This document shows positions 7,311 through 43,941 of a stretch of DNA of 60,040 bases, in pieces; within the stretch, counting starts at the first letter, position 1; each line of letters opens with the position of its first letter. The DNA is from a candidate division CPR2 bacterium GW2011_GWC2_39_10 (lineage in GTDB: Bacteria; Patescibacteriota; CPR2). The stretch covers positions 1 to 60,040 of the forward strand of contig LBVV01000003.1 in assembly GCA_000993275.1 (NCBI GenBank), read 5' to 3'. The translations under genes were made by a program, and so were the position numbers. Under the pieces are notes generated by a model. That model made no database searches, was not told the DNA's origin, and saw nothing but the letters and a program-made list of their open reading frames with translations.

Positions 7311-7483
7311 CTGACCCACGTGCAGTTTTCTTTGTGTCATTCCCGCGTAGGCGGGAATCCAGAGGGTATGGATTCCAAATCGAGCCTGCCTCGCTTTGCT
7401 CGTCAAGGCAGGTTTGGAATGACAAATCTAAGGTCAATTTTTAACAAGTTTATGAGGAGTTTGTAAGAGTGCACGTGGGTCAG
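7311..7483. mobile_element. 173-bp MITE-like unit: 14-nt perfect terminal inverted repeats enclosing a hairpin doublet
   Basis: CTGACCCACGTGCA (7311-7324) pairs with TGCACGTGGGTCAG (7470-7483). Inside are GTCATTCCCGCGTAGGCGGGAATC (7336-7359) and GGATTCCAAA...TTTGGAATGAC (7370-7423). There is no ORF. Confidence 0.55.
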
Positions 7484-7546: not shown

Positions 7547-7622
7547 TTGGTCGGCCTGCTGGGATTTGAACCCAGGACCCCCGCTTTATAAGAACGGTGC
7601 TCTAACCCCTGAGCTACAGGCC
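7547..7622 (-). tRNA. tRNA-Ile with genomically encoded UAU anticodon, CCA encoded
   Basis: The reverse complement CGGCCTGTAGCTCAGGGGTTAGAGCACCGTTCTTATAAAGCGGGGGTCCTGGGTTCAAATCCCAGCAGGCCGACCA folds as a cloverleaf. The anticodon stem is CCGTT/AGCGG and the loop is CTTATAA. Confidence 0.85.
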
Positions 7623-7675
7623 GAAGAAATGTTGGATTGTTTAATTTGATTTTTAGATTTTAAATTTGTTAACGG

Positions 7676-7825
7676 ACTTATTTGAACCAAGATTTGTTCG
7701 TCCAGGGCGGAAACCCGCGACCCCCGCTTTAGTCGCCGTTTTTTTTATTTATTTTATATGTTGTCGGCGGTATTAGCTCTGAAGAGCTAATTAAGAACGG
7801 TGCTCTAACCCTTAAGCTACAGGCC
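7676..7825 (-). pseudogene. Disrupted tRNA-like paralog of the adjacent tRNA-Ile
   Basis: The 5' half GGCCTGTAGCTTAAGGGTTAGAGCACCGTTCTTA and the segment TAAAGCGGGGGTC match the intact gene. They are separated by a ~59-nt hairpin-rich insert inside the anticodon loop. The T-arm is degenerate and no complementary acceptor 3' strand is present. Confidence 0.5.
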
Positions 7826-7917
7826 TGTACAAATATCAACAAAACAAGGTAATTATACTGTAAAATTGACCCTTTTTCAAGGACAAGGTATCTACTCATT
7901 AGGCCCATCAATTTGTC

Positions 7918-7996
7918 CATCCCGCACTTAGATGCGGGATCCATTCTTCCTGGATTCCAGATCCAGCCTTCGGCTGACAGGCAAGTCTGGAATGAT
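7918..7996. repeat. Hairpin doublet of the GTC(C)AT-stem-loop / stem-loop-ATGA(C/T) family
   Basis: CATCCCGCACTTAGATGCGGGATC (7918-7941) and GGATTCCAGA...TCTGGAATGAT (7952-7996). The architecture matches 7336-7423. Confidence 0.7.
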
Positions 7997-8075
7997 ACTG
8001 TAGTTACATAGAAATTTTACATAAAAATAGGGGCCTAGTGAATAAACACAAAGACAAGATAAAGGGATTAGCTAA

Positions 8076-12610: not shown

Positions 12611-14287
12611 TTAAAATGAGCCAATGAAATTTTTTAATTCCTCTTCGGAAGCCATTTGAATGTCATCTTCATTCTTATATTCTTTCGGAAAATGAACCCT
12701 AAAAGTTGTACCAATCTTTTTGTTTAAAACGCACTCCACTTTCCCGCCTAGCCTTTCAGTTAAATTTTTAACTATATAAAGACCCAAGCCCGTACCTTGA
12801 GTTTTTCGGGTTTCCCAATTTTCCATTCGGTAAAATTTTTCGAATATGTGCCTTCTGGCAGATGGCTCTATCCCCACTCCGCTATCCGAAACATCCACAA
12901 TTAAATATTTAGAATCTTCGTCCAAGGTTACTCTAACCCAACCTTTATCCGTAAATTTGATCGCATTTTGAATTAAGTTAGTCACAATTTGGACAATTTT
13001 GTTTTCGTCGGTAACGATAGCTTCGGCATTGGTAATTTTATTTTTAAAACTAACTTCAATATTCTTTTCCCTGGCTTTCGTTTCAAAAGACTTAATAATA
13101 GTTGATATTACTACGCCGAGGTTCACTTTTTTTAATGCAACGCTAACACTTTTGCCGTCAATATTGTAAACCGTTAAAATATCGTTGGTAAGGTTAATTA
13201 GATGGATAGCCGAATTATGAGCAGCCTTAACATTTTCGATAATGTTCGGTTCTACTCCTTCAAGTTGCTTTAGGGCTAAAAATAAGTATCCTTCAATTTG
13301 AGCAAGCGGAGTCCGCATCTCGTGCGATGCCACGGCCACAAACTCGGTACTTCTATCTTCAAGCATCTTATCGCGGGTAATATCCCTAAACAGAACTATT
13401 AAAGTTGTCATTTCCGCACCATGATAAACCGGGTTTAAATGAATATAAAAACGGTACCAGCTATTTTTCCTTTTAAAATATAGATCTGAGCGAATAAGTC
13501 TTGGCGTCTTTTCTTTAAATATCTTATACAAATCGATAGCAATTTTATCCTCGTCGTACAAAGAAAAAACGTCGGCTAAGATTTTGCCCTGAAGGTCTTT
13601 AGTTCCCAAAAGCTCTGCTGCACTTTTATTATGTAAAAATATTTTGCCATCTTTGTCACAGCTTAAAATTCCGTCCCCCAAAGAGTCAATCAAATCCAAA
13701 GATTCTTTTTTGTCGGCTATTATTTTTTTATTTAAATTTTCAAGTTCCAGTTTTTGGTCCCGCATAGATAGCGAGAAGCTGGCAAAGATACGGCTAACGG
13801 CTGCGATGGCAATTAAACTGTAGGTCTGGATAAGCAATATAAACGGCAATCCCCCGGAACCCCTCCACGAAAAAAATGCAACCACATTTAAAAGAATGAT
13901 GCAAGCAACCGTTATAATTGATAATTGACGCAAATTAAAAATATAGGCATCAATCATTATGAGTAAATAAAGATAGATAAGCAAAAAGGAGCCATATTTG
14001 CCAAGACCCATAACGGCAAAGGCGCTGCCGGTAAGGTACACAAGATCGGGCAGCAGAACAAATTTCGGGTTCAGATAAAGCCGCGGAAAATTATAATATA
14101 CAACTGTAAATAGCAGAACTCCCCCAAATATGCCCAGAATCTGTAGCCTGGGAATTTCGGAAGCCGGTATAAGAAAAATGCCGACAATAAGAACAAATAA
14201 AGCCAGTTCGGCAACTATGCCCGATAACTTTTGAGCTTTTTCTAATTCAAAAAATACATCGCTATGTTTTCGCTTTGTCATCAACAA
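12611..14287 (-). CDS. Membrane-bound PAS sensor histidine kinase
   Basis: About 6 N-terminal TM helices, a PAS-like region, H-box SHEMRTPL, N-box NLIQNAIKFT, and G-boxes DSGVGI and GTGLGL. Confidence 0.85.
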   Translation of the reverse strand: MLMTKRKHSDVFFELEKAQKLSGIVAELALFVLIVGIFLIPASEIPRLQILGIFGGVLLFTVVYYNFPRLYLNPKFVLLPDLVYLTGSAFAVMGLGKYGSFLLIYLYLLIMIDAYIFNLRQLSIITVACIILLNVVAFFSWRGSGGLPFILLIQTYSLIAIAAVSRIFASFSLSMRDQKLELENLNKKIIADKKESLDLIDSLGDGILSCDKDGKIFLHNKSAAELLGTKDLQGKILADVFSLYDEDKIAIDLYKIFKEKTPRLIRSDLYFKRKNSWYRFYIHLNPVYHGAEMTTLIVLFRDITRDKMLEDRSTEFVAVASHEMRTPLAQIEGYLFLALKQLEGVEPNIIENVKAAHNSAIHLINLTNDILTVYNIDGKSVSVALKKVNLGVVISTIIKSFETKAREKNIEVSFKNKITNAEAIVTDENKIVQIVTNLIQNAIKFTDKGWVRVTLDEDSKYLIVDVSDSGVGIEPSARRHIFEKFYRMENWETRKTQGTGLGLYIVKNLTERLGGKVECVLNKKIGTTFRVHFPKEYKNEDDIQMASEEELKNFIGSF

Positions 14288-26858: not shown

Positions 26859-27692
26859 TCAAATTATTAAGCCGAAAGCATGCATATATTGACTAATGAT
26901 ATAATCAGACCACAGATAAGCAAGTAATGTACCTAATATTAAAAAGGGTCCGAAAGGTATGGCATCTTTCATTTTTTTAATTTTTAAAACAATAGCCGCT
27001 ATACCGATAATCGAACCTAAAATAAATGCAATCATTAGCGCTAACAATATCTTTGGCCAGCCCAAAAGAAGGCCCATCATTAAGCCCATTTTAACGTCTC
27101 CGCCGCCCATCCATGCGCCCTTGGAAACAGCATAAAAGAAAAAGAAAAAAGCAAAACCAAAAAAACCAGACAATAAATTTGCGCCAATTAACTTAAGACT
27201 ACCATTTAATGCACCGCCGCTATCTATGACCGGAATAATAACAGCGAATAAGAAGCTTATAATAATCAGCGGATACATTATTTCATCATAGATAAGCATC
27301 TCTTTTAAATCGGTTACGGTTATTATAATTAATAAGGAAAAAACTAACAGCCAAAAGGCAAATACAAACCAATTGTATACTGGTAAATTGATCATATCTA
27401 AGCCGCCAAATTCTTTTTGGTAAATAGCCACAAAAACAATGCCCGTTAAAAGCTCTACTATTGGATATTGAATAGATATCGGTTTTTTGCAATAATGGCA
27501 TCTGCCTTGAAGACCAATATAGCTAAACAAAGGAATTAAATCCCAAAAACCTAATTTGTGCTTGCAATTTGGACACGCTGAGTGCAGTCTGAATATGCTT
27601 TTTCCTTTAATAAGGGCATAAGCCGCAACATTTAAAAAACTACCCACAATCAGGCCAAAAACAAAAATGAAAGGAAAATAAATTTCTTGCAT
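26859..27692 (-). CDS. pilD: Prepilin peptidase (A24 family)
   Basis: CPNCKHKL...GRCHYCKKPISIQYPIVELLTG zinc-finger segment, a GGGDVKM aspartyl motif, polytopic. Confidence 0.9.
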   Translation of the reverse strand: MQEIYFPFIFVFGLIVGSFLNVAAYALIKGKSIFRLHSACPNCKHKLGFWDLIPLFSYIGLQGRCHYCKKPISIQYPIVELLTGIVFVAIYQKEFGGLDMINLPVYNWFVFAFWLLVFSLLIIITVTDLKEMLIYDEIMYPLIIISFLFAVIIPVIDSGGALNGSLKLIGANLLSGFFGFAFFFFFYAVSKGAWMGGGDVKMGLMMGLLLGWPKILLALMIAFILGSIIGIAAIVLKIKKMKDAIPFGPFLILGTLLAYLWSDYIISQYMHAFGLII

Positions 27693-27730
27693 ATGTATTA
27701 TTTTCTTACAAATTTAATGCAATGTAAATA

Positions 27731-27766
27731 AAAAAAGCGCCCATAACCTTAGGGGCGCTTTTTTTT
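27731..27766 (-). terminator. Strong hairpin terminator/attenuator after the major pilin gene
   Basis: On the minus strand: AGCGCCCC-TAAGGTTAT-GGGCGCT followed by TTTTTTT. Confidence 0.75.
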
Positions 27767-27775
27767 AGCTAATCT

Positions 27776-28219
27776 TTATTGGATAGAAAAATCTTCGCCG
27801 ACTGCTAAAGTGTTAGCGCAAGTTCCTAACGTTTCAGGCTCAGGAAGTATCCTTAAGTTATATTGGTTTCTGGATACCTTGCTATAACAACTTCTGTTAT
27901 CGTCAGTGGCACCCCTTGGATCTTCAACATCAAAAGTAGCGTAAGTTGGAAACAGTGCTTTTAAGTTCACGATATTAATATCGGTACCTACAGTGCCCGG
28001 ATAATCCTTCTTCGATGAATAATACGACTCCAAAGCCGCCTTCATGGACGTAATGTTTGACCTTCGTTGAGTATTTCTAGACTGCATCCTAGCTGTGTTA
28101 ATTGCCCAGATCATTAATGTTACCAAAATAGCAATGATTGCCATTACTACTAAAAGCTCTATTAGAGTAAAACCCTTCGATTTACTCAGGACTTTTCCTT
28201 TTTTGGATTTTTTTAGCAT
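27776..28219 (-). CDS. pilA: Major type IV pilin
   Basis: SKSKG/FTLIELLVVMAIIAIL class III signal. GGAGGG RBS upstream. A dedicated terminator follows. Confidence 0.85.
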   Translation of the reverse strand: MLKKSKKGKVLSKSKGFTLIELLVVMAIIAILVTLMIWAINTARMQSRNTQRRSNITSMKAALESYYSSKKDYPGTVGTDINIVNLKALFPTYATFDVEDPRGATDDNRSCYSKVSRNQYNLRILPEPETLGTCANTLAVGEDFSIQ

Positions 28220-28245
28220 TTTCTGCCCTCCTTTTTTAAAAAAAT

Positions 28246-29466
28246 TTATTTTTTATACATAACCTGCGAAAGCCCGTAAATAGGCATCATTATTGCTACC
28301 AATATACCGCCAACAACAACACCTAACACTACAATAATAAACGGCTCTAAAAGCGCTGACAAGCCTTTTATTAAATTATCAACCTCTTCCTCGTAATAAT
28401 TGGCTAAACCCTCAAGCATCTGGTCCATTTCGCCTGTTTCTTCTCCAACACTAATCATTTGCCCAACCACCGCCGGAAACAACGGATTTGCGTTTAAGGG
28501 TTCGGATAATGGCTTTCCTCCTTGTACTAAATCAGAAACCTTAAAAACCGCCTGTTTATAAATAACGTTTCCGCAGGCTCTGCCGGCAATTTTTAAAGAA
28601 TCTAGCACCGGCACCCCTGAACCCATTAAGGTGCCTAGCGTTCTTGTAAATCTGGCCAAAATAATTTTCCTAACTAACGAGCCGAGCCCGGGTATAGATA
28701 TTTTGGTCTGATCCCATACTTGGCGCCCGAAAGGTGTCTGAATAAAAGTACGCGCTAGGATTATAAAAAAAATTGTAAATAATATTACGATCCACCAAAA
28801 TTTAATTAAAAATCCGCTTACCCCCATTAAGAATTGGGTAATGGCGGGCAAATCTCCTTTTAAATCACTGTATAGGTCAGCCATCTTTGGCATAACATAC
28901 ATTAACATTACAGCCACAACACCAACAACTACCAACAAAACGAAGGAGGGATAAATCATAGCGCTTGTAAGTTTTGACTTTAAGGCATAATCTTTTTCCA
29001 ATTGTTTGGCCATCCTGGTTAAAACGATATCCAAAGAACCCGAAGCCTCACCAGCCTGTATTAAGCTTATATCGGTTACGTTGAAGACTTTTGGAAATCT
29101 GCCAAACGCTTGAGACAAAGAACTGCCGTTTTCAATTTCTTTTAAAATATCAACAAATATTTTTTGAATATATGGCTTATCGATCTGTTTAATTAAAGTT
29201 TGCAAGGCTTTTGCTACCGGCAAACCTGCATTAATTAGAGTGGCAAGCTGTCTTATAATATTTGCCTTTTGTTTAGTAGAAACTCCCTCAAAAATACCTA
29301 AACTGATATTGCCGGAAGAAACTGACGTTTTTTTCTGCTCTATTTTTACAGGGTAAAGCTGTTTTTCTACCAAAGCTTTGGCAACGGCATTAGCGTCCGG
29401 CGCGTCTAAAACACCGGATATTAGCTGCCCCTGCGCATTTTTGGCTGTGTAAACGAATGTTAACAT
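28246..29466 (-). CDS. pilC: Type IV pilus platform protein (GspF/PilC family)
   Basis: 406 aa with duplicated T2SS-F domains and three TM segments. Confidence 0.9.
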   Translation of the reverse strand: MLTFVYTAKNAQGQLISGVLDAPDANAVAKALVEKQLYPVKIEQKKTSVSSGNISLGIFEGVSTKQKANIIRQLATLINAGLPVAKALQTLIKQIDKPYIQKIFVDILKEIENGSSLSQAFGRFPKVFNVTDISLIQAGEASGSLDIVLTRMAKQLEKDYALKSKLTSAMIYPSFVLLVVVGVVAVMLMYVMPKMADLYSDLKGDLPAITQFLMGVSGFLIKFWWIVILFTIFFIILARTFIQTPFGRQVWDQTKISIPGLGSLVRKIILARFTRTLGTLMGSGVPVLDSLKIAGRACGNVIYKQAVFKVSDLVQGGKPLSEPLNANPLFPAVVGQMISVGEETGEMDQMLEGLANYYEEEVDNLIKGLSALLEPFIIVVLGVVVGGILVAIMMPIYGLSQVMYKK

Positions 29467-30537
29467 TTAACCTCTTATATATCTTTCTAATTGCTGGATA
29501 TCAATTGAATAGCTTTTAGCTTCATCCAAGGTAATTTTACCGGCTTTAACAAAGTTTGCCAAAGCGCTGTCCATAGTTATCATACCATGTTCGGTACCGG
29601 TTTGGATAACCCCTTCTAGCTGGTGGGTTTTTCCTTCCCTAATAATATTTCTAACCGCCGCCGTGGCGATCATTACTTCGGCAATGGCAACTCGGCCGCC
29701 GCCGATAGCCGGAACAAGCCTTTGCGATATAATTCCCTGAAGCATACCGGCGAGCTGAACCCTAACCTGCTGCTGCTGATGCGGCGGGAAAACGTCCACA
29801 ATACGGTCAACCGACTGAGCTGCACTATTGGTATGAAGTGTGGCAAGAACCAGGTGCCCGGTTTCAGCAATAGTTATAGCTGCCGCAATTGTCTCTAAAT
29901 CACGCATTTCGCCAACCAACACAACGTCCGGATCTTCACGAAGAACCGACCTTAAAGCCGCTGCAAACGACCTGGTATCATAATGAACTTCTCTTTGCTC
30001 TAGGATCGATTTTTTATTGACATGATTATACTCTATCGGGTCCTCTACCGTTATAATATGGCAAGCCTTTTCGGTGTTTATATAGTTAATCATGGCAGCA
30101 AGAGAAGTTGATTTACCGGAACCGGTGGGGCCGGTAAACAAAACTAAGCCTCTTGGAATTTTGGCAAGTTCAAAACAAACCTTTGGAAGGCCCAAATCTT
30201 CTATGCTACGGATTTTTGTGGGAATAAGCCTTAGAGCAAGGCCGGCATTGCCTCTTTGATGATAAGCGTTGGCCCTAAATCTGGCAACATCGCCGAAAGC
30301 GAAGGAAAAATCTACTTCTTTATCGCGAATAAAAATTTCCTTCTGGTTGTCATCAACCACTTGAAACACTATGTCTTCAGTTTGTTCTGCTGTCAGTTGA
30401 CCATATTCCGAAAGAGGCACCAACCGTCCGTCAACTCTTAAAACCGGGGGCACCCCGACCGAAAGATGCAAGTCGGACGCATCCTGTTTTAAAACTTCTT
30501 CCAGCAAATGTTCTACTTTTATTGTTTGTGTCGGCAT
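29467..30537 (-). CDS. pilT: Type IV pilus retraction ATPase
   Basis: Walker A GPTGSGKST, Asp/His boxes, and about 356 aa from ATG 30537 (GGAGGAAGT directly upstream). The ORF-track start at 30579 is probably too long. Confidence 0.85.
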   Translation of the reverse strand: MPTQTIKVEHLLEEVLKQDASDLHLSVGVPPVLRVDGRLVPLSEYGQLTAEQTEDIVFQVVDDNQKEIFIRDKEVDFSFAFGDVARFRANAYHQRGNAGLALRLIPTKIRSIEDLGLPKVCFELAKIPRGLVLFTGPTGSGKSTSLAAMINYINTEKACHIITVEDPIEYNHVNKKSILEQREVHYDTRSFAAALRSVLREDPDVVLVGEMRDLETIAAAITIAETGHLVLATLHTNSAAQSVDRIVDVFPPHQQQQVRVQLAGMLQGIISQRLVPAIGGGRVAIAEVMIATAAVRNIIREGKTHQLEGVIQTGTEHGMITMDSALANFVKAGKITLDEAKSYSIDIQQLERYIRG

Positions 30538-30555
30538 ACTTCCTCCAGTTATATT

Positions 30556-30588
30556 CAATAAACAATTAGCAATAAGCAATTAACAAAG
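30556..30588. repeat. Left 33-nt terminal inverted repeat of the four-helix-bundle ORF cassette
   Basis: CAATAAACAATTAGCAATAAGCAATTAACAAAG matches the reverse complement of 31115-31147 at 31 of 33 positions. Confidence 0.85.
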
Positions 30589-30593
30589 GCAAA

Positions 30594-30950
30594 TCAAATG
30601 TTTGCCTTTTCCTTAACCTTATTCATTAAAACCCACAATATTTTACCAATTTCTTCAGCCAATGTTAAGGCGTCATTATAATCTTTTTTATTTAAATATC
30701 CTTCATCGCTACAAAAATGAAGCAAATATTTGGTTTCCTTTAGGGAACCATAGGCAATTTGCAAGAACTGTTTAAAGCTCCTACTGCTTTGTCTGGCATA
30801 TCCCTCAACAATATTTAAAGGAACTGATAATACTGCGCGCCTTAATTGAGAAGTTATTCCATAAACCTCTTCTTTTGAAAAATCTCTAGTAAATTTATAA
30901 ACCAAATGAGCTAATTGATCTGATTTATAGTATAAAGGATTACTCTGCAT
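30594..30950 (-). CDS. Four-helix-bundle protein (23S rRNA intervening-sequence protein / Avd-like family)
   Basis: Family-typical FTRDFSKEEVYGITSQLRRAVLSVPLNIVEGYARQS...FLQIAYGSLKETKYLL, 118 aa. Confidence 0.8.
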   Translation of the reverse strand: MQSNPLYYKSDQLAHLVYKFTRDFSKEEVYGITSQLRRAVLSVPLNIVEGYARQSSRSFKQFLQIAYGSLKETKYLLHFCSDEGYLNKKDYNDALTLAEEIGKILWVLMNKVKEKANI

Positions 30951-31114
30951 GTTTTTTCTTACCTTCTTGCTTACTCTTTTATTTTTATTGTTAATTGTTT
31001 CATATTATTTAAATTATTGATTTTCTGGATTCCCGCCTTCGCGGGAATGACAAGGGGTGTTGCGGGAATGACAGTGTGTAGTATGAAAATGACAGGGGTG
31101 GGATTAATCATTTT

Positions 31115-31147
31115 CTTTGTTTATTGCTTATTGTTAATTGTTTATTG
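31115..31147. repeat. Right 33-nt terminal inverted repeat of the four-helix-bundle ORF cassette
   Basis: CTTTGTTTATTGCTTATTGTTAATTGTTTATTG. See 30556-30588. Confidence 0.85.
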
Positions 31148-31162
31148 ATTATTAGGCTTCGC

Positions 31163-32956
31163 CTAATAATCCTGTGCTACTCTGGCTACTTCCTTTATTG
31201 TTGTTATTCCGGACAAGGCTTTCAAATAACCGTCTTGTTTCATGGTTACCATGCCTTCTTTAACGGCCGCGTCTTGAATTTCTGAGGTGGTAGCGTCTGC
31301 CAAAAGCAACCTTTCCATGGCCTGCGATACCGAAAATATTTCGTAAATCCCCATTCTTCCCGAATAACCGCTGCCATGACATTCTTCGCATCCCTTGCCC
31401 TTATATAAATTATACTTCTCAGTGTCGCGAAATGGAAGGTTTGGCATCCCGAAATCTGCAATTACTTCTTTAGCTTTAGGATCGCTCGATTCCGGCAAAA
31501 CTTCTTTTAGCGATTCTTTAATTGCAGCGGTTTCGGATTCTGAAGCAACATAAGCTTCTCGGCATTTATCGCAAATTTTCCTGACCAGTCTTTGCCCAAC
31601 AACGGTATTAACGGTGGATGCAATTAAAAACGGCTCTACTTTCATGTCTTTTAAACGAGGCAAAACACCGGCAGCAGAATTAGTATGCAAGGTGGAAAGA
31701 ACAACGTGCCCCGTTAAGGCCGACTGAACCGCCAAATCGGCAGTTTCGGTATCTCGAATTTCACCAACCATTATAACGTCGGGGTCCTGACGCAGAACAG
31801 AACGTAAACCCGCCGCAAACGTCAGACCTATGGCCGCATTTGTTTGAATCTGATTTATGCCTTCAATGTTATATTCCACCGGATCTTCTAAAGTAATAAT
31901 ATTAATTTCGGCCGAATTTATTTTTGACAAAACCGCATACAGAGTAGTAGATTTACCGGAACCGGTAGGGCCTGTGGATAAAATCATGCCATGCGGTTTC
32001 CCGGCAGCTTCTTCTATAAGGCGATAAGCCCGGCCTTTGATGCCCAGTTTGTCCAAAGTAATAACGCCGCCGGATTTATCTAAAATACGAATAACCACTT
32101 TTTCGCCATATACAATCGGCGATATTGAAATACGAAGATCCACGTCAGTTTCGCCAATTTTGATGGAAAAACGCCCGTCTTGAGGAAGACGATGCTCATC
32201 AATTTTTAAATTTGATAAAATTTTGATACGCGACACAATGGCGGCATGAATATGCTTGGGTAAAGTCATAACCTCGCTTAAAATACCATCAATTCTATAT
32301 CTTACCTTAACAGATTTTTCTCTGGGCTCTATATGAATATCAGATGCCTTGGCCTTAATGGCGTACTCTAAAATTGTATTCACAGCCCGAGTAACCGGCG
32401 CATCCTGAGAAATACTAACCTCTTCTCCGCCTTCTTTTGGAACCGGCGAATTTCCATCTTCCCCCAAATCGGAGATTCCCGGTAAATTATCCATGCCCTT
32501 CATAACATCTTTTGCTTCATTGGAAAAGGATTTAAACTGCGAAATTCCACTTTTAATACTTGTGGTTGAGGCAATAAAGGGAACAACCTTGAGGCCGGTT
32601 TTTTTCTCGACAAAATCGATAACTTGTAGATTGGCAGGGTCAACCATGGCAAAATTTAAATTACTGCCATTAGCGCCAAAGGGCAGAACCAGATACCTTT
32701 CGCAATATTCTTTTTCCAGCAAGTTTAAGGTTTTTTCATCAATTTTTTGATTGGTCAAATTAGCATAAGGGGTTTGGTTTGCTAAAGCCTTGGCCTTAGT
32801 TAAATCCTCTTCCTTAAGAGTTCCCGCATCCAATAAAACTTCATCTAGGGCCTTACCCAATTTGACGCTTTCTATTTTGGCAATATCAAGCTGATCGGGC
32901 GTTAAAACCTTATGTTCTAAAAGTACCTGCTCTAGTTTTTTATCATTCTTAACCAA
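31163..32956 (-). CDS. pilB: Type IV pilus assembly ATPase (GspE/PilB family)
   Basis: N-terminal GspE-N domains, Walker A GPTGSGKST, the CxxC...CxxC zinc motif (CDKC ... CEEC), TTG start. Confidence 0.9.
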   Translation of the reverse strand: MVKNDKKLEQVLLEHKVLTPDQLDIAKIESVKLGKALDEVLLDAGTLKEEDLTKAKALANQTPYANLTNQKIDEKTLNLLEKEYCERYLVLPFGANGSNLNFAMVDPANLQVIDFVEKKTGLKVVPFIASTTSIKSGISQFKSFSNEAKDVMKGMDNLPGISDLGEDGNSPVPKEGGEEVSISQDAPVTRAVNTILEYAIKAKASDIHIEPREKSVKVRYRIDGILSEVMTLPKHIHAAIVSRIKILSNLKIDEHRLPQDGRFSIKIGETDVDLRISISPIVYGEKVVIRILDKSGGVITLDKLGIKGRAYRLIEEAAGKPHGMILSTGPTGSGKSTTLYAVLSKINSAEINIITLEDPVEYNIEGINQIQTNAAIGLTFAAGLRSVLRQDPDVIMVGEIRDTETADLAVQSALTGHVVLSTLHTNSAAGVLPRLKDMKVEPFLIASTVNTVVGQRLVRKICDKCREAYVASESETAAIKESLKEVLPESSDPKAKEVIADFGMPNLPFRDTEKYNLYKGKGCEECHGSGYSGRMGIYEIFSVSQAMERLLLADATTSEIQDAAVKEGMVTMKQDGYLKALSGITTIKEVARVAQDY

Positions 32957-32969
32957 TGATTAGCCTTCT

Positions 32970-33257
32970 TTATTCATTTATTTGACGCTTGATGCCGGTA
33001 AAAATATCTCTTTGCTGATTAATTTCATCGGGACTTGGAGGGGCAACTTCATACCACTTTCTTTCCTCATTTTCCTTGATATTCCAATAGCTTTTCAAGT
33101 CGCCTTCCTTAATATCTCCCGTGTATGGAATTTTTTTCTCAACAATTCCTACCTTCTTTCTAGTCTTGCCGTATGTCATATAAACGAAATAAGAACATCC
33201 TCCGATAATTGCTATCATGAAAATTACTAAAAATAATTGGCTGTATTTTTTATTCAT
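32970..33257 (-). CDS. Small putative lipoprotein in the PilP position
   Basis: Lipobox-like IIGGCS after a hydrophobic N-terminus. It lies between the pilO-like gene and pilB. Confidence 0.4.
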   Translation of the reverse strand: MNKKYSQLFLVIFMIAIIGGCSYFVYMTYGKTRKKVGIVEKKIPYTGDIKEGDLKSYWNIKENEERKWYEVAPPSPDEINQQRDIFTGIKRQINE

Positions 33258-33837
33258 CTATTTTTACCTCACCTTTATAATAAGTGCTAATAGTTATATC
33301 GTAGGTTAATTTTGCACCTTCCTCAGTATTTAAAGAGAGCCCGGACACATTAAGAAGCTTTCTATTGTCCTGAACTAAGCGTAAAAACTTCATCAGATCT
33401 GTATATAAACCAGCAGAAGTAATTTTAAAATCCGTTTGCATGACGGTGCTGCTTACGCCGTCAATTGATACTGCCTGGCTTGTCCCTGACTCATTTACCA
33501 ATTTTGTTTCAATTTTCAGATCTTTAGAAATACCATCTATAGTTGCGTATAAATGAGGCCTATCATCCTTATTAGGTAAAATTTGGATTACCCTTGCGTC
33601 CATTAAATCAAGTAGGTTTTTTTGAACGTCGTTTTTAAGATATTTCTCTATAATATCTCTTCTTTTTTCGTAATAACTTAGATCAGCTGTTGCTTGCGAA
33701 ATTTTTTTATTTGTTTCGGTTATTTTTTGCCAATTTGGTTTTAAGATAAGAATTGCAATAAACAAATCAAAAATTATTGCAACCGTTACAATTAAAACTC
33801 CATATGCATTGGTTGATGCTCTTTCTTCTACTTCCAT
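33250..33837 (-). CDS. pilO: PilO-like pilus assembly protein
   Basis: Single N-terminal TM helix, a coiled coil, then a ferredoxin-like C-terminus. The call rests mainly on position after pilN. Confidence 0.5.
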   Translation of the reverse strand: MEVEERASTNAYGVLIVTVAIIFDLFIAILILKPNWQKITETNKKISQATADLSYYEKRRDIIEKYLKNDVQKNLLDLMDARVIQILPNKDDRPHLYATIDGISKDLKIETKLVNESGTSQAVSIDGVSSTVMQTDFKITSAGLYTDLMKFLRLVQDNRKLLNVSGLSLNTEEGAKLTYDITISTYYKGEVKIDE

Positions 33838-34403
33838 AGCACACCTCCTTCAACCTCGAAGCTTAAGCTAAAATCAATTTTATTATCTTGGTTAACCATA
33901 TATCCTGTGCTTTTAATATTCTTAAAAAGATTTGCCTTCTGACCATCAAGATCATTCGCCTGATAAGCTTCAAGGGTTGTTATAAATTGGTTCATTGATT
34001 CTACCGTATCGCAACCCGCCGTTATATTCACGACACCTTTATCGTTTGTATAACTAACTAGTCTTAATTCATTTGGAACAGTTTTCTCAAATTCTTCAAA
34101 AACTTTTTTCCATTTATAAGAGGCTTCATTTAATGTTTTTATATCAGCCATCCCTTCCTCAACCGTAAGAATCTTTTGCTCCGTTTTTTTATAGTCCTCT
34201 TTCATCAGATCTGTTTTTACTGCCATTATGCTTTTGTTATAATCGGACAGTTGTTTTTCTTTAATGTTTTTTATCCCTATAATGGAAGTGGCGCCAACTA
34301 TGCCGCAAATCCCCAAAACTATGGCCGCCGCCGTCGCCAAGAAATTGCTTTTTCCCTCTTTTATCTCCGTGGATTTTTCCTGCGGGATAAGATTTATTTT
34401 CAT
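33828..34403 (-). CDS. pilN: PilN-like pilus assembly protein
   Basis: MKINLIPQE N-terminus typical of PilN, then one TM helix. It overlaps pilM and pilO. Confidence 0.6.
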   Translation of the reverse strand: MKINLIPQEKSTEIKEGKSNFLATAAAIVLGICGIVGATSIIGIKNIKEKQLSDYNKSIMAVKTDLMKEDYKKTEQKILTVEEGMADIKTLNEASYKWKKVFEEFEKTVPNELRLVSYTNDKGVVNITAGCDTVESMNQFITTLEAYQANDLDGQKANLFKNIKSTGYMVNQDNKIDFSLSFEVEGGVLWK

Positions 34404-35437
34404 TTAACCTCCCTTAGTGCCAAACCGATAACTGTTGAATAGTCCGGTGCATTATTTATTATATCCTCCTGGACACTAACCGGATAGGCAATATTTTTCC
34501 AGGGGTTTGCTATTTGTACATCCATATTAAACGTTTTCGCAAAGAAAGTCCCAATTTCCGGCATTTTAGCGGATCCTCCACTTATTATAAACAAATCTAC
34601 GCGAGAACCAAACTGATTTTCAAAAAATTGCATCGATTTAATGATTTCGTCCACTATTGTGGCTAAAATCGGCTTAATTGCCTTATACACCCTGCCTTCA
34701 AGCTTTTCTAAGGTGACGCCAAACTTACACTTAAACTGGTCGGCCTGGGCAAGATCCAGGCCTAAGGTGTTGGAAATTGCACGGGTGAAAGCCTCCCCGC
34801 CAAAAGATATACTCCTTGAATGAAGAACAATGTGGTTTTCCACAATTGCAAGTTCTGTTGACATGGCGCCAATATCGACAATTAAACTTTTAGCGCCGGG
34901 AAAAGTAGCTAGAGACCTTGACAGGGCAATGTTGGTCGTTTCCAAACCAACCAAGTTAAGCCCGGCCTCTGCTATAATGCGGTTAATTCTTTTAACCCTT
35001 TCAATAGGAGCAGCCGTAATCATTACCTGAACCTGCTCATTAGCATTTTTTGGCACGCTAATTACTTGCCAGTCGTAGCGGACGTCTTCTATATTCATCG
35101 GTAAATTCTGCTGCACTTGCCATTGGACGGCTTTTTTAAGGTCTGACGGTGACATTTGCGGAAAAGGCAAAACCAAAGTAAACACCTGGTTTTCCGGCAG
35201 CGCCGTGGATACGTTCTTGGTGGTAGCCCTCGTTCCTTTAACCAACTGCCTTATAACTTCGGCAAGACGCCTGATATCGATATCGCTATCGCTCTGCGAC
35301 AAGCCAATAGGAATACTGGCCGTCCCGTAAGTAACTAAAAGAGGTTTAGCGCTAGACGCCTTTAACTGAACCAACTTAAGAGTAGTTGATCCTATATCTA
35401 GACCAAAAAATTCATCTGAACGACTAAATAAACCCAA
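34400..35437 (-). CDS. pilM: Type IV pilus assembly ATPase-fold protein PilM
   Basis: Actin-like fold motifs (FGLDIGSTTLKLVQL, DIGAMSTEL). TTG start with AGGAGGG upstream. Confidence 0.85.
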   Translation of the reverse strand: MGLFSRSDEFFGLDIGSTTLKLVQLKASSAKPLLVTYGTASIPIGLSQSDSDIDIRRLAEVIRQLVKGTRATTKNVSTALPENQVFTLVLPFPQMSPSDLKKAVQWQVQQNLPMNIEDVRYDWQVISVPKNANEQVQVMITAAPIERVKRINRIIAEAGLNLVGLETTNIALSRSLATFPGAKSLIVDIGAMSTELAIVENHIVLHSRSISFGGEAFTRAISNTLGLDLAQADQFKCKFGVTLEKLEGRVYKAIKPILATIVDEIIKSMQFFENQFGSRVDLFIISGGSAKMPEIGTFFAKTFNMDVQIANPWKNIAYPVSVQEDIINNAPDYSTVIGLALREVK

Positions 35438-35736: not shown

Positions 35737-35896
35737 AAATACGAGGGTTTTTCGGACACAAGTGCGTAAGTCCTATAATTGAGGCATTGATAATTGGTTA
35801 AAAATTGTAAATTCAGGATTAATAATTTTTTTAAATTCGGCATTTTCAGTTTCCCGCCTATGAGGGAATGACATCAAAAAATTAAGGTTTCTTGAA

Positions 35897-35932: not shown

Positions 35933-37099
35933 ATGAAATTATCTATTGGCATTGTTGGTCTTCCTAACGTTGGGAAGTCAACATTATTTAATGCCCTAAC
36001 TAAAAATCAAGTGGATGCCAAAAATTATCCGTTTTGCACAATCGACCCAAATGTGGGCATTGTTAGCGTTCCGGATGAACGGCTGTATCCTTTAGCTACA
36101 GCGGTTAAAACTGAAAAAATTATTCCGGCCATTGTGGAATTTACAGATATTGCCGGAATTGTTAAGAACGCTCATAAGGGTGAAGGCTTGGGAAATAAAT
36201 TTTTGTCACATATCCGAGAAGCGGATGCCATTTTGGAAGTAGTCAGGGTTTTTGAGGATTCCAATGTCCTTCACGTTGACGGAAATATCAATCCCACTTC
36301 CGATATAGAAACAATTGCCATGGAACTTATATTTGCCGACCTAGCCAATATGGAAAAGGCTATCCAAAGGACCGAAAAATTAGGTAAAACTGAACCTAAA
36401 GAAGCGGCTTTGCAAATGCCGGTGCTTAAAAAAGTTCAAAAGTGGTTGGAAGAAGGAAAACCCGCAAGGGCACTTTTAAACAACAAACATAATCGTCATT
36501 CTGAATTTAGTTCAGAATCTCATCTATCACGAGACCAGATCCTGAAACAAGTTCAGGATGACACTAAAAGCAACCTTTCTGAAAAAGAACTGGAAATTTT
36601 AAAACCTTTGAATTTGATAACTCTAAAGCCTCATATCTACGCTTTTAACGTTTCGGAAGCCGATTTGGTAAAACCAAAATTGCCGGAGATGAAGGAAGAT
36701 TATGTCGTCTTTTCAGCCAAGTTAGAACAAGACCTGCAAGATTTATCTGATCCGGAACAAAAAGAATATTTACAGGAACTTGGCATAGAGGATACCGGCC
36801 TTAACCGACTTGTTAAAAAAGCTTATGAAAATCTAGGGCTAATAACCTACTTTACGGCCGGCGAAAAAGAAGTCCGCGCATGGACCATAAAAAAAGGTTG
36901 GAGCGCTCCACAAGCCGCCGGAGAAATACATACAGATTTTGAAAAAGGCTTCATTTCGGCAGACGTTGTCAATTGGAAAAATTTAGTGGCATTTGGCTGG
37001 CAGGGCGCTAAAGAAAAAGGCAGAGTAAGAGCAGAAGGCAGAGACTATATTGTAAAAGACGGCGATGTCATGATTTTTAAATTTAACGTGAGCAAATAA
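35933..37099 (+). CDS. ychF: Ribosome-binding ATPase YchF
   Basis: MKLSIGIVGLPNVGKSTLFNALT G1 motif, DIAGIVKNAHKGEGLGN, and a C-terminal TGS-like GRDYIVKDGDVMIFKFNV. It carries an extra ~30-aa segment (see findings). Confidence 0.9.
   Translation: MKLSIGIVGLPNVGKSTLFNALTKNQVDAKNYPFCTIDPNVGIVSVPDERLYPLATAVKTEKIIPAIVEFTDIAGIVKNAHKGEGLGNKFLSHIREADAILEVVRVFEDSNVLHVDGNINPTSDIETIAMELIFADLANMEKAIQRTEKLGKTEPKEAALQMPVLKKVQKWLEEGKPARALLNNKHNRHSEFSSESHLSRDQILKQVQDDTKSNLSEKELEILKPLNLITLKPHIYAFNVSEADLVKPKLPEMKEDYVVFSAKLEQDLQDLSDPEQKEYLQELGIEDTGLNRLVKKAYENLGLITYFTAGEKEVRAWTIKKGWSAPQAAGEIHTDFEKGFISADVVNWKNLVAFGWQGAKEKGRVRAEGRDYIVKDGDVMIFKFNVSK
36495..36562 (+). repeat. Hairpin doublet inserted in frame within ychF
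   Basis: GTCATTCTGAATTTAGTTCAGAATC (36495-36519), a 18-nt spacer, then GATCCTGAAACAAGTTCAGGATGAC (36538-36562). It is translated as RHSEFSSESHLSRDQILKQVQDD. Confidence 0.85.
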
Positions 37100-40495: not shown

Positions 40496-40616
40496 CGAAA
40501 GTCCTTTCATTATTTTCTAGATTCCCGCCTCCGCGGGAATGACAAGAGAAGAATGTTCCATCAATTTTTTTTCATAGTTTAAGAATAGCAGAAAAACTTT
40601 TTATATAACAGCAGCT

Positions 40617-40974
40617 GTCATCCTGAATTTATTTCAGGATCTACAAAATCCTCTATAATAAGGTCATGCGAAGCTATGTTTATATTTTGTCTAACAAAAA
40701 AGAAGGTGTTTTGTATATTGGAGTTACTTCAAATTTAATTAAAAGAATATATGAACATAAACAAGGATTTGTTGATGGGTTTTCAAAGAAATACAACACC
40801 AAAGATTTGGTTTATTATGAAACATTCGATGATATTGAAAATGCAATATTGAGAGAAAAGAAATTAAAAAATTGGCATCGTCAGTGGAAATTAAATTTAA
40901 TTAATGATTTTAATCCTAGCTGGATTGACCTATATAACTCTCTACTATAGATCCTGAACTAAATTCAGGATGAC
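40617..40974 (+). mobile_element. Candidate minimal cassette: GIY-YIG ORF bracketed by inverted 25-nt hairpin repeats
   Basis: GTCATCCTGAATTTATTTCAGGATC (40617-40641) and GATCCTGAACTAAATTCAGGATGAC (40950-40974) are reverse complements of each other apart from one loop base. Confidence 0.5.
40666..40950 (+). CDS. Minimal GIY-YIG nuclease-domain protein (UPF0213-like, 94 aa)
   Basis: YVYILSNKKEGVLYIGVTSNLIKRIYEHK ... REKKLKNW signature. Confidence 0.85.
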   Translation: MRSYVYILSNKKEGVLYIGVTSNLIKRIYEHKQGFVDGFSKKYNTKDLVYYETFDDIENAILREKKLKNWHRQWKLNLINDFNPSWIDLYNSLL

Positions 40975-43413: not shown

Positions 43414-43941
43414 ATGAGAATGTTTTCAACCGTTTATAACATGCCGGTCAATTCCTTAAATGAAGGAATGACTGTTGGTGTTGTTGAAGACATCATTATA
43501 AATCCGGATACCGGACAAGTCTTGGGCTTCAAGCTTTCCGAGACATCAATTAGAGAGAGATACATTTTAGTAGCCTCCGATATTCGCGAAATTAATGATC
43601 TTATGTTAATTATTGACGATTCTCAAAATTTATCCACTTTGGATGAGGTAATTAAAATTGCTGAAGTTGTCGGCAAGAAAATAAAGTGGATGGGCATTAA
43701 GGTTGAAACGGATTTGGGTAGAAAGCTGGGTAAAATAGAAGACCTGGCTTTTGACACAACTAATTTTTATTTAACCAGAATTTATACATCAGGCGGCCTA
43801 ATAAAGGAAGCCTTATCGCTAGAAAAAACTATCATTCCTGCGAACAAAATTATTAAAGTTACTAAAAAAGTGGTTATTGTTGAAGACAGTTATGTCAAAA
43901 ATAAAAAAAGTAGCGAAGCAATCGCCCCGGAAGCTGCATAG
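43414..43941 (+). CDS. PRC-barrel domain protein (two barrels)
   Basis: VGVVEDIIINPDTGQVLGFKL and LGKIEDLAFDTTNFYLTRI motifs. The start is ambiguous (GTG 43396 or ATG 43414). Confidence 0.5.
   Translation: MRMFSTVYNMPVNSLNEGMTVGVVEDIIINPDTGQVLGFKLSETSIRERYILVASDIREINDLMLIIDDSQNLSTLDEVIKIAEVVGKKIKWMGIKVETDLGRKLGKIEDLAFDTTNFYLTRIYTSGGLIKEALSLEKTIIPANKIIKVTKKVVIVEDSYVKNKKSSEAIAPEAA

Follow-up and report, generated by a model that had tools for sequence, protein, structure and literature searches.

Why does the gene for YchF, a universally conserved ATPase, carry in one bacterium of the candidate phyla radiation (CPR) a run of additional codons that forms, as DNA, a pair of facing hairpins? The question arises from a 60,040-nt stretch of the genome of candidate division CPR2 bacterium GW2011_GWC2_39_10 (NCBI assembly GCA_000993275.1, contig LBVV01000003.1, positions 1 to 60,040 of the forward strand), hereafter referred to as the window. 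Based on sequence comparisons, the feature in ychF very probably represents an intragenic head-to-head dimer of CGTC-tagged repetitive extragenic palindromes (REPs), or SRM elements, of a stem class termed CTGAA here. It would be the non-coding partner of a gene for a GIY-YIG nuclease of the Ssn family, which is located 4 kb downstream of the hairpin pair and is termed the cassette together with its own two flanking hairpins. The gene and the parts of the insert are as follows.

35933-37099, plus strand: ychF (redox-regulated / ribosome-binding ATPase YchF), 388 aa from MKLSIG, carrier of the insert
36476-36571, plus strand: lineage-specific in-frame insert of 32 codons, residues 182-213, LNNKHNRHSEFSSESHLSRDQILKQVQDDTKS, unmatched in solved YchFs
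36495-36519, plus strand: hairpin unit 1, GTCATTCTGAATTTAGTTCAGAATC, CTGAA stem class, stem ATTCTGAA/TTCAGAAT, loop TTTAG, tail CTC
36520-36537, no strand: 18-nt spacer of the head-to-head dimer
36538-36562, minus strand: hairpin unit 2, GATCCTGAAACAAGTTCAGGATGAC, inverted, minus-strand reading GTCATCCTGAACTTGTTTCAGGATC, stem the same as in the cassette units

The 388-aa open reading frame (ORF) matched the equivalog family TIGR00092 with 430.6 bits and contains the Pfam domains MMR_HSR1 and YchF-GTPase_C, and HMMER searches against solved structures retrieved the Haemophilus influenzae YchF (1jal) with an E-value of 1e-106. In the HMMER alignments to solved structures, residues 182-213 are without counterpart and positions 197 and 198 of the E. 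coli protein (8kie) are contiguous, so that the surplus amounts to 32 aa or 96 nt. Codons 188-210 represent the share of the hairpin pair, the remaining residues being extra flanks of six (182-187) and three (211-213) positions. The insert is missing from the YchF proteins of E. coli, H. influenzae and Thermus, and most of the approximately 120 CPR orthologues, compared as the 120 best-scoring homologues listed, possess no residues at the insertion point. The best protein matches assign the source of the window to CPR/Patescibacteria, candidate division CPR2 being the nearest group. The nearest insert-free orthologue, a CPR2 YchF (L003) with 70% identity, holds just a short, unrelated extra segment of 9 aa at this position, and no hairpin of the CGTC/SRM family was found in the 21-kb CPR2 locus. 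Furthermore, an identical ychF sequence is present on six contigs originating from different assemblies and samples (ENA, JGI and NCBI GCA_000995565.1; groundwater sources include ERZ28564412 and JGI 3300025012), which rules out an assembly chimera. The ychF insertion is not an assembly artefact.

The AlphaFold2 model of the window's YchF reached a mean predicted local distance difference test score (pLDDT) of 87 and template modelling scores of 0.81-0.86 to 8kie, the E. coli YchF on the 50S subunit. It comprises coiled-coil helices at residues 121-153 and 155-173 and a short turn (178-181), followed by the insert, a conserved helix (217-226) and then the G4 strand. Within the insert the pLDDT is 56-67, residues 188-195 showing values below 50. 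According to this model, the insert is located at the exit of the helical insertion inside the G domain, upstream of G4 (N239), where the loop after the coiled coil is variable in length across YchF proteins in general.

A previous sequence-only reading of this DNA had described a hairpin doublet in frame inside ychF and a YchF of 388 aa starting with MKLSIG, and both observations were confirmed by the sequence and by the TIGR00092 and HMMER matches. Its statement that the frame stays open also holds, since the frame is kept both in the window and in a close relative (see below) with insert lengths that are multiples of three. The limits given at that time for the insert, 36478-36570, had to be shifted to 36476-36571, with the hairpin core at 36495-36562, and the claim that the surplus is encoded exactly by the doublet is correct for codons 188-210 and incorrect for residues 182-187 and 211-213, which lie outside the doublet. 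The comparison of orthologues and the structural model that it had proposed yielded an insert absent from most CPR YchFs and from those of E. coli and H. influenzae, and of low confidence within an otherwise typical YchF fold; the assembly chimera that it had named as a possible refutation is contradicted by the six identical contigs. Two of its statements had to be abandoned, namely the placement of the insert between the G domain and the TGS domain, as the segment is modelled after the coiled coil and before G4 within the G domain, and the designation of ychF as essential, which is an overstatement. In E. coli, ychF can be deleted.

In both ychF units a loop of 5 nt closes a perfect stem of 8 bp, and the core of the pair, arranged head to head (GTCAT...ATGAC), spans 68 nt. 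The stems of the ychF and cassette units are ATTCTGAA/TTCAGAAT and ATCCTGAA/TTCAGGAT, each closed by a 5-nt loop. Compared with the reverse complement of the right cassette unit, unit 1 shows no differences other than a C>T substitution and the paired G>A substitution, the loop TTTAG being the same. The tag reads CGTC in unit 1 (36494-36497), TGTC on the minus strand in unit 2, and TGTC and CGTC in the cassette units. The tails are CTC in unit 1, CTG in unit 2, CTA in the cassette and CCA or CTA in further units of the window that resemble the Neisseria element NTS; the published consensus is CCA. An in-frame CAG (36536-36538), composed of the last two spacer bases and G36538, occupies the place at which the right cassette unit has TAG, and thus shows what an intragenic copy must avoid.

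A generic motif was defined as GTC followed by ATYCNNNN, a loop of 3-6 nt, a perfectly complementary NNNNGRAT and C. It occurs seven times in the window versus not once in 300 first-order Markov simulations using the window's dinucleotide transition frequencies, which excludes chance. Perfect units in the 60-kb window comprise four of the CTGAA class and three of the NTS class, and in all seven GTC precedes and C follows the palindrome. An 88-nt region folds as DNA into two hairpins (-12 kcal/mol, z -3.8) and as RNA into one long hairpin (-29.3 kcal/mol, z -7.7), beating all 200 shuffles in either case. No direct repeat flanks the ychF dimer (...CATAATC/GTCAT...ATGAC/ACTAAA) or the other dimers examined, and a comparison by eye of the dimer spacer with the cassette interior revealed no convincing similarity.

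The presumed partner gene and its hairpins are located at the following positions.

40617-40641, plus strand: left hairpin of the ssn gene, GTCATCCTGAATTTATTTCAGGATC, same class as the ychF pair
40666-40950, plus strand: ssn-family gene for a 94-aa single-domain GIY-YIG nuclease (PF01541, E 2.5e-16)
40950-40974, minus strand: right hairpin of the ssn gene, GATCCTGAACTAAATTCAGGATGAC, overlapping G40950, the last base of the TAG stop codon 40948-40950

PF01541 spans residues 3-77 of the 94-aa protein and no other domain was detected; NCBIfam searches gave nothing above cut-off and a search of phage collections nothing informative. By means of tblastn, a 94-aa ORF was found in a Neisseria gonorrhoeae chromosome, with seven NTS copies within 1.47 kb around it. 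The two proteins are identical at 45 of 90 positions without gaps (50%; BLASTP E 3e-35), and residues Y6, Y17 and E64, which were mutated in the SsnA study cited below, are aligned in both. The gonococcal ORF was taken to be the SsnA orthologue on the basis of its length and NTS flanks, not of annotation; it is unannotated in its source record (L151, NZ_CP119140.1 1881675-1883144), a 2.17-Mb replicon filed as a plasmid in PLSDB.

Homologues of the window's Ssn with 60-74% identity were found in Shewanella, Francisella, Campylobacteraceae, Alphaproteobacteria and Chitinophagaceae, which suggests horizontal spread. GTCATTCTGAACTTGTTTCAGAATCTCAT, with the very stem and tail of ychF unit 1, flanks the closest of them (72%, L147); other stem classes flank more distant homologues (65-66%). 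This pattern supports a pairing of the Ssn clade of the window with the CTGAA class, and the window's Ssn is, on such comparative grounds, the likely partner of CTGAA-class hairpins. The syntenic ftsJ-efp spacer contains no ssn gene in CPR2 (L003) and L128, its length being 104 nt in CPR2 versus 698 nt in the window. A search for the identical Ssn protein at other genomic places found none: all 21 contigs represent the ftsJ-ssn-efp locus, and there is thus no evidence of recent movement of the cassette. As a separate observation, the TAG stop codon of ssn is located inside the tail of the right hairpin in the window (40948-40950) as well as in L147 (approximately 1786-1788), the end of the gene and the hairpin being coupled.

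For assignment of the ychF feature to a known kind, two bodies of work are relevant. CGTC-tagged REPs were described as units with an unpaired CGTC or TGTC (or CCTC) tag, a stem of 8-9 bp that opens with two complementary A/T positions, a loop of 4-5 nt and an unpaired tail of 3 nt with the consensus CCA (Di Nocera 2013, PMC3733652). They mostly form head-to-head dimers with the tags outside and units 20-100 bp apart, and more than half of the intragenic copies are dimers or groups encoding 20-30 aa. In the same survey, CGTC-1 was equated with Neisseria dRS3, CGTC-1 and CGTC-4 of Rickettsia conorii were equated with RPE-6 and RPE-4, respectively, and no associated transposase was found. Moreover, the NTS element CGTCATTCCCGCGMAVGCGGGAATCYRG and its SRM relatives flank ssnA, a gene for a 94-aa single-domain GIY-YIG protein, in many phyla (Chenal 2025, PMC11893778). 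SsnA binds the folded hairpin as single-stranded DNA only and in one orientation only, and cuts a few nt 5' of the hairpin; cleavage and binding depend on a C that directly follows the palindrome on its 3' side and on conserved bases preceding it on the 5' side. In N. meningitidis, where NTS copies are seldom intragenic (2%), transformation is modulated by SsnA (PMC11893778).

The ychF pair shares with the CGTC-tagged REPs the CGTC/TGTC tag, the 8-bp stem starting with A-T, the 5-nt loop (CGTC-2-like), the presence of a short unpaired tail, the head-to-head arrangement and an in-frame reading of about 20-30 aa within an otherwise conserved protein; the ATTCCCGC units of the window, with 8 bp and 4 nt, are CGTC-1-like. 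The same head-to-head layout recurs at 7336-7423, in L001, L126 and L127 and at several contig loci elsewhere. Features of the SRM system are likewise present, as GTC precedes and C follows the palindrome, same-class units lie on both sides of the ssn gene, and ORF 40666-40950 is short (94 aa, below 150 aa), single-domain and in possession of Y6, Y17 and E64. The pair differs from the CGTC-tagged REPs in its CPR host (the 2013 survey listed five phyla, the names of which were not compared), in the gene ychF, in the AT-rich CTGAA stem, in its CTC/CTG tails instead of CCA and in a spacer of 18 nt versus the usual 20-100. Compared with the NTS/SRM system, to which the window is linked by a GIY-YIG protein 50% identical to the Neisseria orthologue and bracketed by oriented GTC-tagged hairpins, the ychF copy is intragenic and in frame.

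The published SRM search string, HGTCWYN(0-2)YYVSBRHN(0-5)WNVSBRGN(0-2)RNCYNB, is a heuristic deduced from 29 genomes and not a definition (PMC11893778). It did not match the ychF and cassette units, the stems of which have A/T where S (G/C) is required, and the family assignment was kept despite this miss on the basis of the anatomy, the flanks of Ssn and the flanks of the 72% homologue. The AT-rich stem class that escapes the string is an extension of the known stem repertoire. The class occurs in many phyla, and Ssn-target censuses are therefore underestimates.

The exact 25-mer of the CTGAA class was found in at least 120 stretches from Patescibacteria, Bacteroidota, Alpha- and Gammaproteobacteria, Melainabacteria, Spirochaetes and others, mostly as solitary, intergenic copies. 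In-frame copies are present in LigA (Nomurabacteria), in glutamate synthase (Treponema), in a FemAB-family gene and in glycosyltransferases. Next to the 135 copies of the 25-mer inspected in other genomes, no GIY-YIG ORF was located within 400 nt; most copies are thus solitary, and proximity to a nuclease gene is not usable as a general rule. Within ychF, canonical NTS head-to-head dimers occur in frame at a second loop, after NVDEE, in L126 and L127, which represent independent CPR lineages; that of L126 comprises ...CATGTCATTCCCGCGCAGGCGGGAATCCAGG...ATTCCCGCCTGCGCGGGAATGAC and is read as VIPAQAGIQ...DSRLRGND. Signature hairpin peptides were recognised in approximately 20 of the 120 best YchF matches listed. 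CPR ychF is colonised recurrently, at two loops, which is a modest novelty.

The history of the insertion can be followed in a relative with an 86%-identical YchF (L001, L002, L145), which has an insert in the corresponding position. GTCAT and ATGAC occupy the same codon positions in the window and in L001, and the extra flanks are of equal length (LNNKHN versus FANPSP at 182-187 and TKS versus NKV at 211-213). The interior of the L001 element belongs to a different hairpin class, GTCATTCCGCACTTGATGCGGAATC..., of 62 nt versus 68 nt in the window, and its right unit is decayed. Outside the insert the two genes share 92% amino acid identity and 61% identity at four-fold sites; inside it, amino acid identity is 27%, with 60% nucleotide identity across the element. 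The insert lengths of 96 nt in the window and 90 nt in L001 are both multiples of three. The insert peptide is thus unconstrained and the frame kept: judged from these values, the peptide drifts at about the neutral rate, and the remainder of YchF is under strong purifying selection in both lineages, with the frame through the insert maintained.

The comparison shows an insertion that was, as far as the two sequences tell, acquired before the split from the 86%-identical relative. Our reading of the data is a single ancestral insertion with subsequent turnover of the interior, either by conversion to the resident class or by drift with maintenance of the stems, two lineages having been sampled. 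That the dimers represent two independent insertions into the same target is improbable: their ends coincide to the codon, the extra flanks, otherwise unique, are equally long in both genes, and the 60% identity of the element equals the neutral value at four-fold sites. It would, however, accord with the different stem and loop classes of the dimers, with the greater similarity of the ychF units to copies in their own genome (82-86%, loops included) than to the positional orthologue (68-71%), and with the decayed unit that occupies the same ychF loop in the distant P0033. A metagenome scan with the degenerate upstream ychF flank for intermediates or empty sites retrieved CPR2-type and L001-type loci only. 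A close relative with a different hairpin class between the same boundaries is new, again to a modest degree, on the evidence of these alignments.

Concerning the mechanism, the element is proposed to be selfish or neutral DNA that is translated as a flexible loop of about 32 aa and would be tolerated owing to its position. In single-stranded DNA, each unit would fold, and the resident Ssn would bind the hairpin and nick a few nt 5' of the GTC tag, placing the nicks just outside both tags, to the left of unit 1 in the top strand and to the right of unit 2 in the bottom strand. The spread and homogenisation of copies would be the work of host repair or recombination that uses further copies as templates, in a homing or gene-conversion-like manner. 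Since GIY-YIG nucleases are, to our knowledge, not known to catalyse strand transfer, copy-templated repair is favoured over cut-and-paste; we likewise know of no transposition activity of Ssn. Conversion from other copies would explain why the ychF units are nearer to the hairpins of their own cassette than to the positional orthologue.

A further, more tentative proposal is that intragenic dimers, far from being passive relics, are overwritten in place by the hairpin class of the resident Ssn, in a nick-induced and copy-templated process between the GTCAT and ATGAC ends. We consider this possible, though doubtful. If true, nature would have recorded in the ychF site how two close relatives came to differ by a class switch, and Ssn/SRM would represent a true homing-type mobile system that routinely decorates CPR proteins, about one sixth of the 120 best-scoring YchF homologues being decorated at two permissive loops.

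Several points weigh against an Ssn-partnered mobile dimer. The ychF element is known here as DNA sequence, and the comparisons revealed neither a target-site duplication nor, at nucleotide resolution, an empty site; the closest orthologue devoid of the insert is only 70% identical. What was demonstrated for Ssn is cutting and not mobilisation (PMC11893778), and cleavage by the window's Ssn is an assumption, as the ychF and cassette units are off the SRM string. Given that none of the 135 copies elsewhere lies near a GIY-YIG ORF, the proximity in the window could be coincidental, and perfect stems combined with a drifting peptide could equally fit a function of the hairpins themselves.

This last point leads to the explanation that the pair is kept for the benefit of the host, either as an Ssn target at the DNA level that limits recombination or transformation with incoming single-stranded DNA of the ychF region, as the NTS-gene-NTS arrangement does in Neisseria, or as an RNA structure (-29 kcal/mol) tuning the translation of ychF or the stability of its mRNA. 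Both stems are perfect despite the neutral drift of the peptide they encode, 22 of 23 positions agree in an orthologous intergenic unit although four-fold sites agree at only 61%, and the RNA folding reaches a z of -7.7. Moreover, a type IV pilus / competence-like cluster (26859-35437) lies directly upstream of ychF, which would be relevant if Ssn modulates DNA uptake, as SsnA does transformation in N. meningitidis. A host function is nevertheless quite unlikely, as the relative's right unit and the window's unit between pilM and ychF are decayed, most CPR YchFs are devoid of the insert, carriers differ in loop and class, and conversion from other copies accounts just as well for the upkeep of the stems. 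Removal of the insert before the mature protein is formed, by an intron, an intein or translational bypass, might be suspected from the very stable RNA hairpin and is hardly credible: 96 nt or 32 aa is far below the size of a group I/II intron or an intein, no Rfam family matched at threshold (best E-values 0.11 and 0.6), and an open frame with a length that is a multiple of three in two lineages would be needless if the segment were removed. On the same grounds of size and missing Rfam match, classification as an intein or self-splicing intron was rejected. An ancestral YchF loop with fortuitous DNA symmetry, or an assembly chimera, has practically no probability. Although the loop after the coiled coil is length-variable in YchF, such an origin is at odds with seven motif occurrences against none in the simulations, with the spread of the 25-mer class over many phyla, with the absence of the insert from most orthologues and with the identity of the gene in six assemblies.

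Among other known systems, REPIN/RAYT shares with the window the inverted hairpin doublets, a single-copy partner gene with the same flanks and many solitary, non-autonomous copies. It differs in its GTAG tag, its partner, an HUH tyrosine transposase of the IS200/IS605 type, and its overwhelmingly extragenic copies; membership of the ychF pair was rejected on account of the CGTC/TGTC tag and the GIY-YIG partner gene. Bacterial MITEs and the Neisseria NIMEs are likewise small non-coding units bounded by inverted repeats, NIMEs being repeat segments bounded by dRS3 pairs. In the ychF pair, however, the terminal repeats are themselves hairpins, 68 nt is below the typical size of a MITE, and MITE membership was dismissed because no target-site duplication was seen in the flanks despite the inverted-repeat ends. 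The Rickettsia element RPE-1 was reportedly described by Ogata et al. in 2000 as selfish DNA of palindromic structure that enters conserved genes in frame and is expressed in the form of additional segments on the protein surface. It is longer (approximately 100-150 bp) and forms a separate repeat family, and we know of no partner nuclease for it.

These comparisons also bear on the remaining claims of the sequence-only reading. The parallel it drew to Rickettsia palindromic elements turned out to be closer than an analogy, as RPE-4 and RPE-6 belong to the same superfamily of CGTC-tagged REPs (PMC3733652). Its suggestion of a REPIN-like, non-autonomous form of the cassette is supported as far as class, orientation and proximity are concerned; a deletion derivative is unsupported, no interior similarity having been found. 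The compensatory substitution that it noticed in unit 1 is real, yet ATTCTGAA/TTCAGAAT is an existing stem variant that also flanks the Ssn gene of L147, and the compensated stem may be inherited or mosaic and not the product of two fresh point mutations. The novelty it implied was overrated, since the ychF feature is of an already described kind and what is new is the CPR host and the gene ychF.

Bacteria with proteins decorated by palindromic selfish DNA form a short list, which is extended here by a CPR/Patescibacteria case in a universally conserved ATPase; the case is also linked to a resident Ssn gene of matching hairpin class. When RHSEFSSES, ILKQVQDD, VIPAQAGIQ, DSRLRGND or similar peptides turn up in metagenomic proteins, they become readable as translated hairpins and not as real motifs. 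Moreover, the window and L001 together provide a concrete, testable case for studying how CGTC REP/SRM elements propagate.

Further hairpins of the window, mostly of the NTS-like class, are listed below.

40521-40543, minus strand: hairpin of the second class (CGTC-1 / NTS-like), ATTCCCGC stem, 4-nt loop, 74 nt left of the cassette
31029-31051, minus strand: NTS-like unit matching the published SRM string, followed by partial tag-side copies at 31062-31074 and 31085-31096
7336-7423, no strand: intergenic head-to-head NTS-like dimer, left unit perfect, right unit decayed
35850-35872, minus strand: remnant of a decayed hairpin between pilM and ychF, matching an intact L001 unit by position

The near-exact NTS consensus CGTCATTCCCGCGMAVGCGGGAATCYRG is present at 7335-7362 and 31025-31052, and these are the two matches of the SRM string in the window (0.03 expected). 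A GTCAT-hairpin match at 43451-43472 was rejected as a family member: it lies inside a PRC-barrel-like ORF that aligns without gaps to its CPR2 orthologue, and the sequence is native and a chance resemblance. In CPR2 (L003/L004, 10553-10600), the 9-aa extra segment at the same YchF loop resembles a tandem duplication (QKGFDPF / EKGLNPL), both copies of which are palindromic (AAAGGGTTCGACCCTTT, AAAGGGTTGAACCCTTT); a related palindrome at 13003-13036 forms the hairpin, terminator-like in appearance, that separates ftsJ from efp. Three instances in 21 kb are too few to define a family.

The two NTS-like dimers at 7336-7423 and 7915-7998, the second of which is decayed, bracket tRNA-Ile(tat) (7548-7623, minus strand) and also a tRNA-like fragment at approximately 7700-7825 (minus strand), in which both tRNA halves are repeated and approximately 60 nt are inserted at the anticodon loop. 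This fragment received no call by ARAGORN, also in intron mode, or by Rfam.

The pilus cluster upstream of ychF encodes a prepilin peptidase, an N-methyl pilin, PilC-like proteins and PilT/PilB-like ATPases and includes pilM/N/O-like genes. Between it and ychF, the window's remnant at 35850-35872 is the decayed orthologous copy of a right unit that belongs, in L001 (2123-2202), to a head-to-head dimer still intact. The unit at 31029-31051 and its counterpart in L145 (3681-3703), located in the spacer between a bAvd / 23S-rRNA-IVP-like ORF and pilB, are identical at 22 of 23 positions, and given 61% identity at four-fold sites this unit upstream of pilB is actively maintained. On the tag side of the full unit in the window (31029-31096), partial copies of the 3' arm plus tag are present (GCGGGAATGACAG, GAAAATGACAGG), and similar partial tag-side copies lie beside the intragenic dimer in another CPR ychF (L126, 2292-2345). 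These partial half-hairpin copies may represent footprints of repair at the side on which Ssn is reported to cut.

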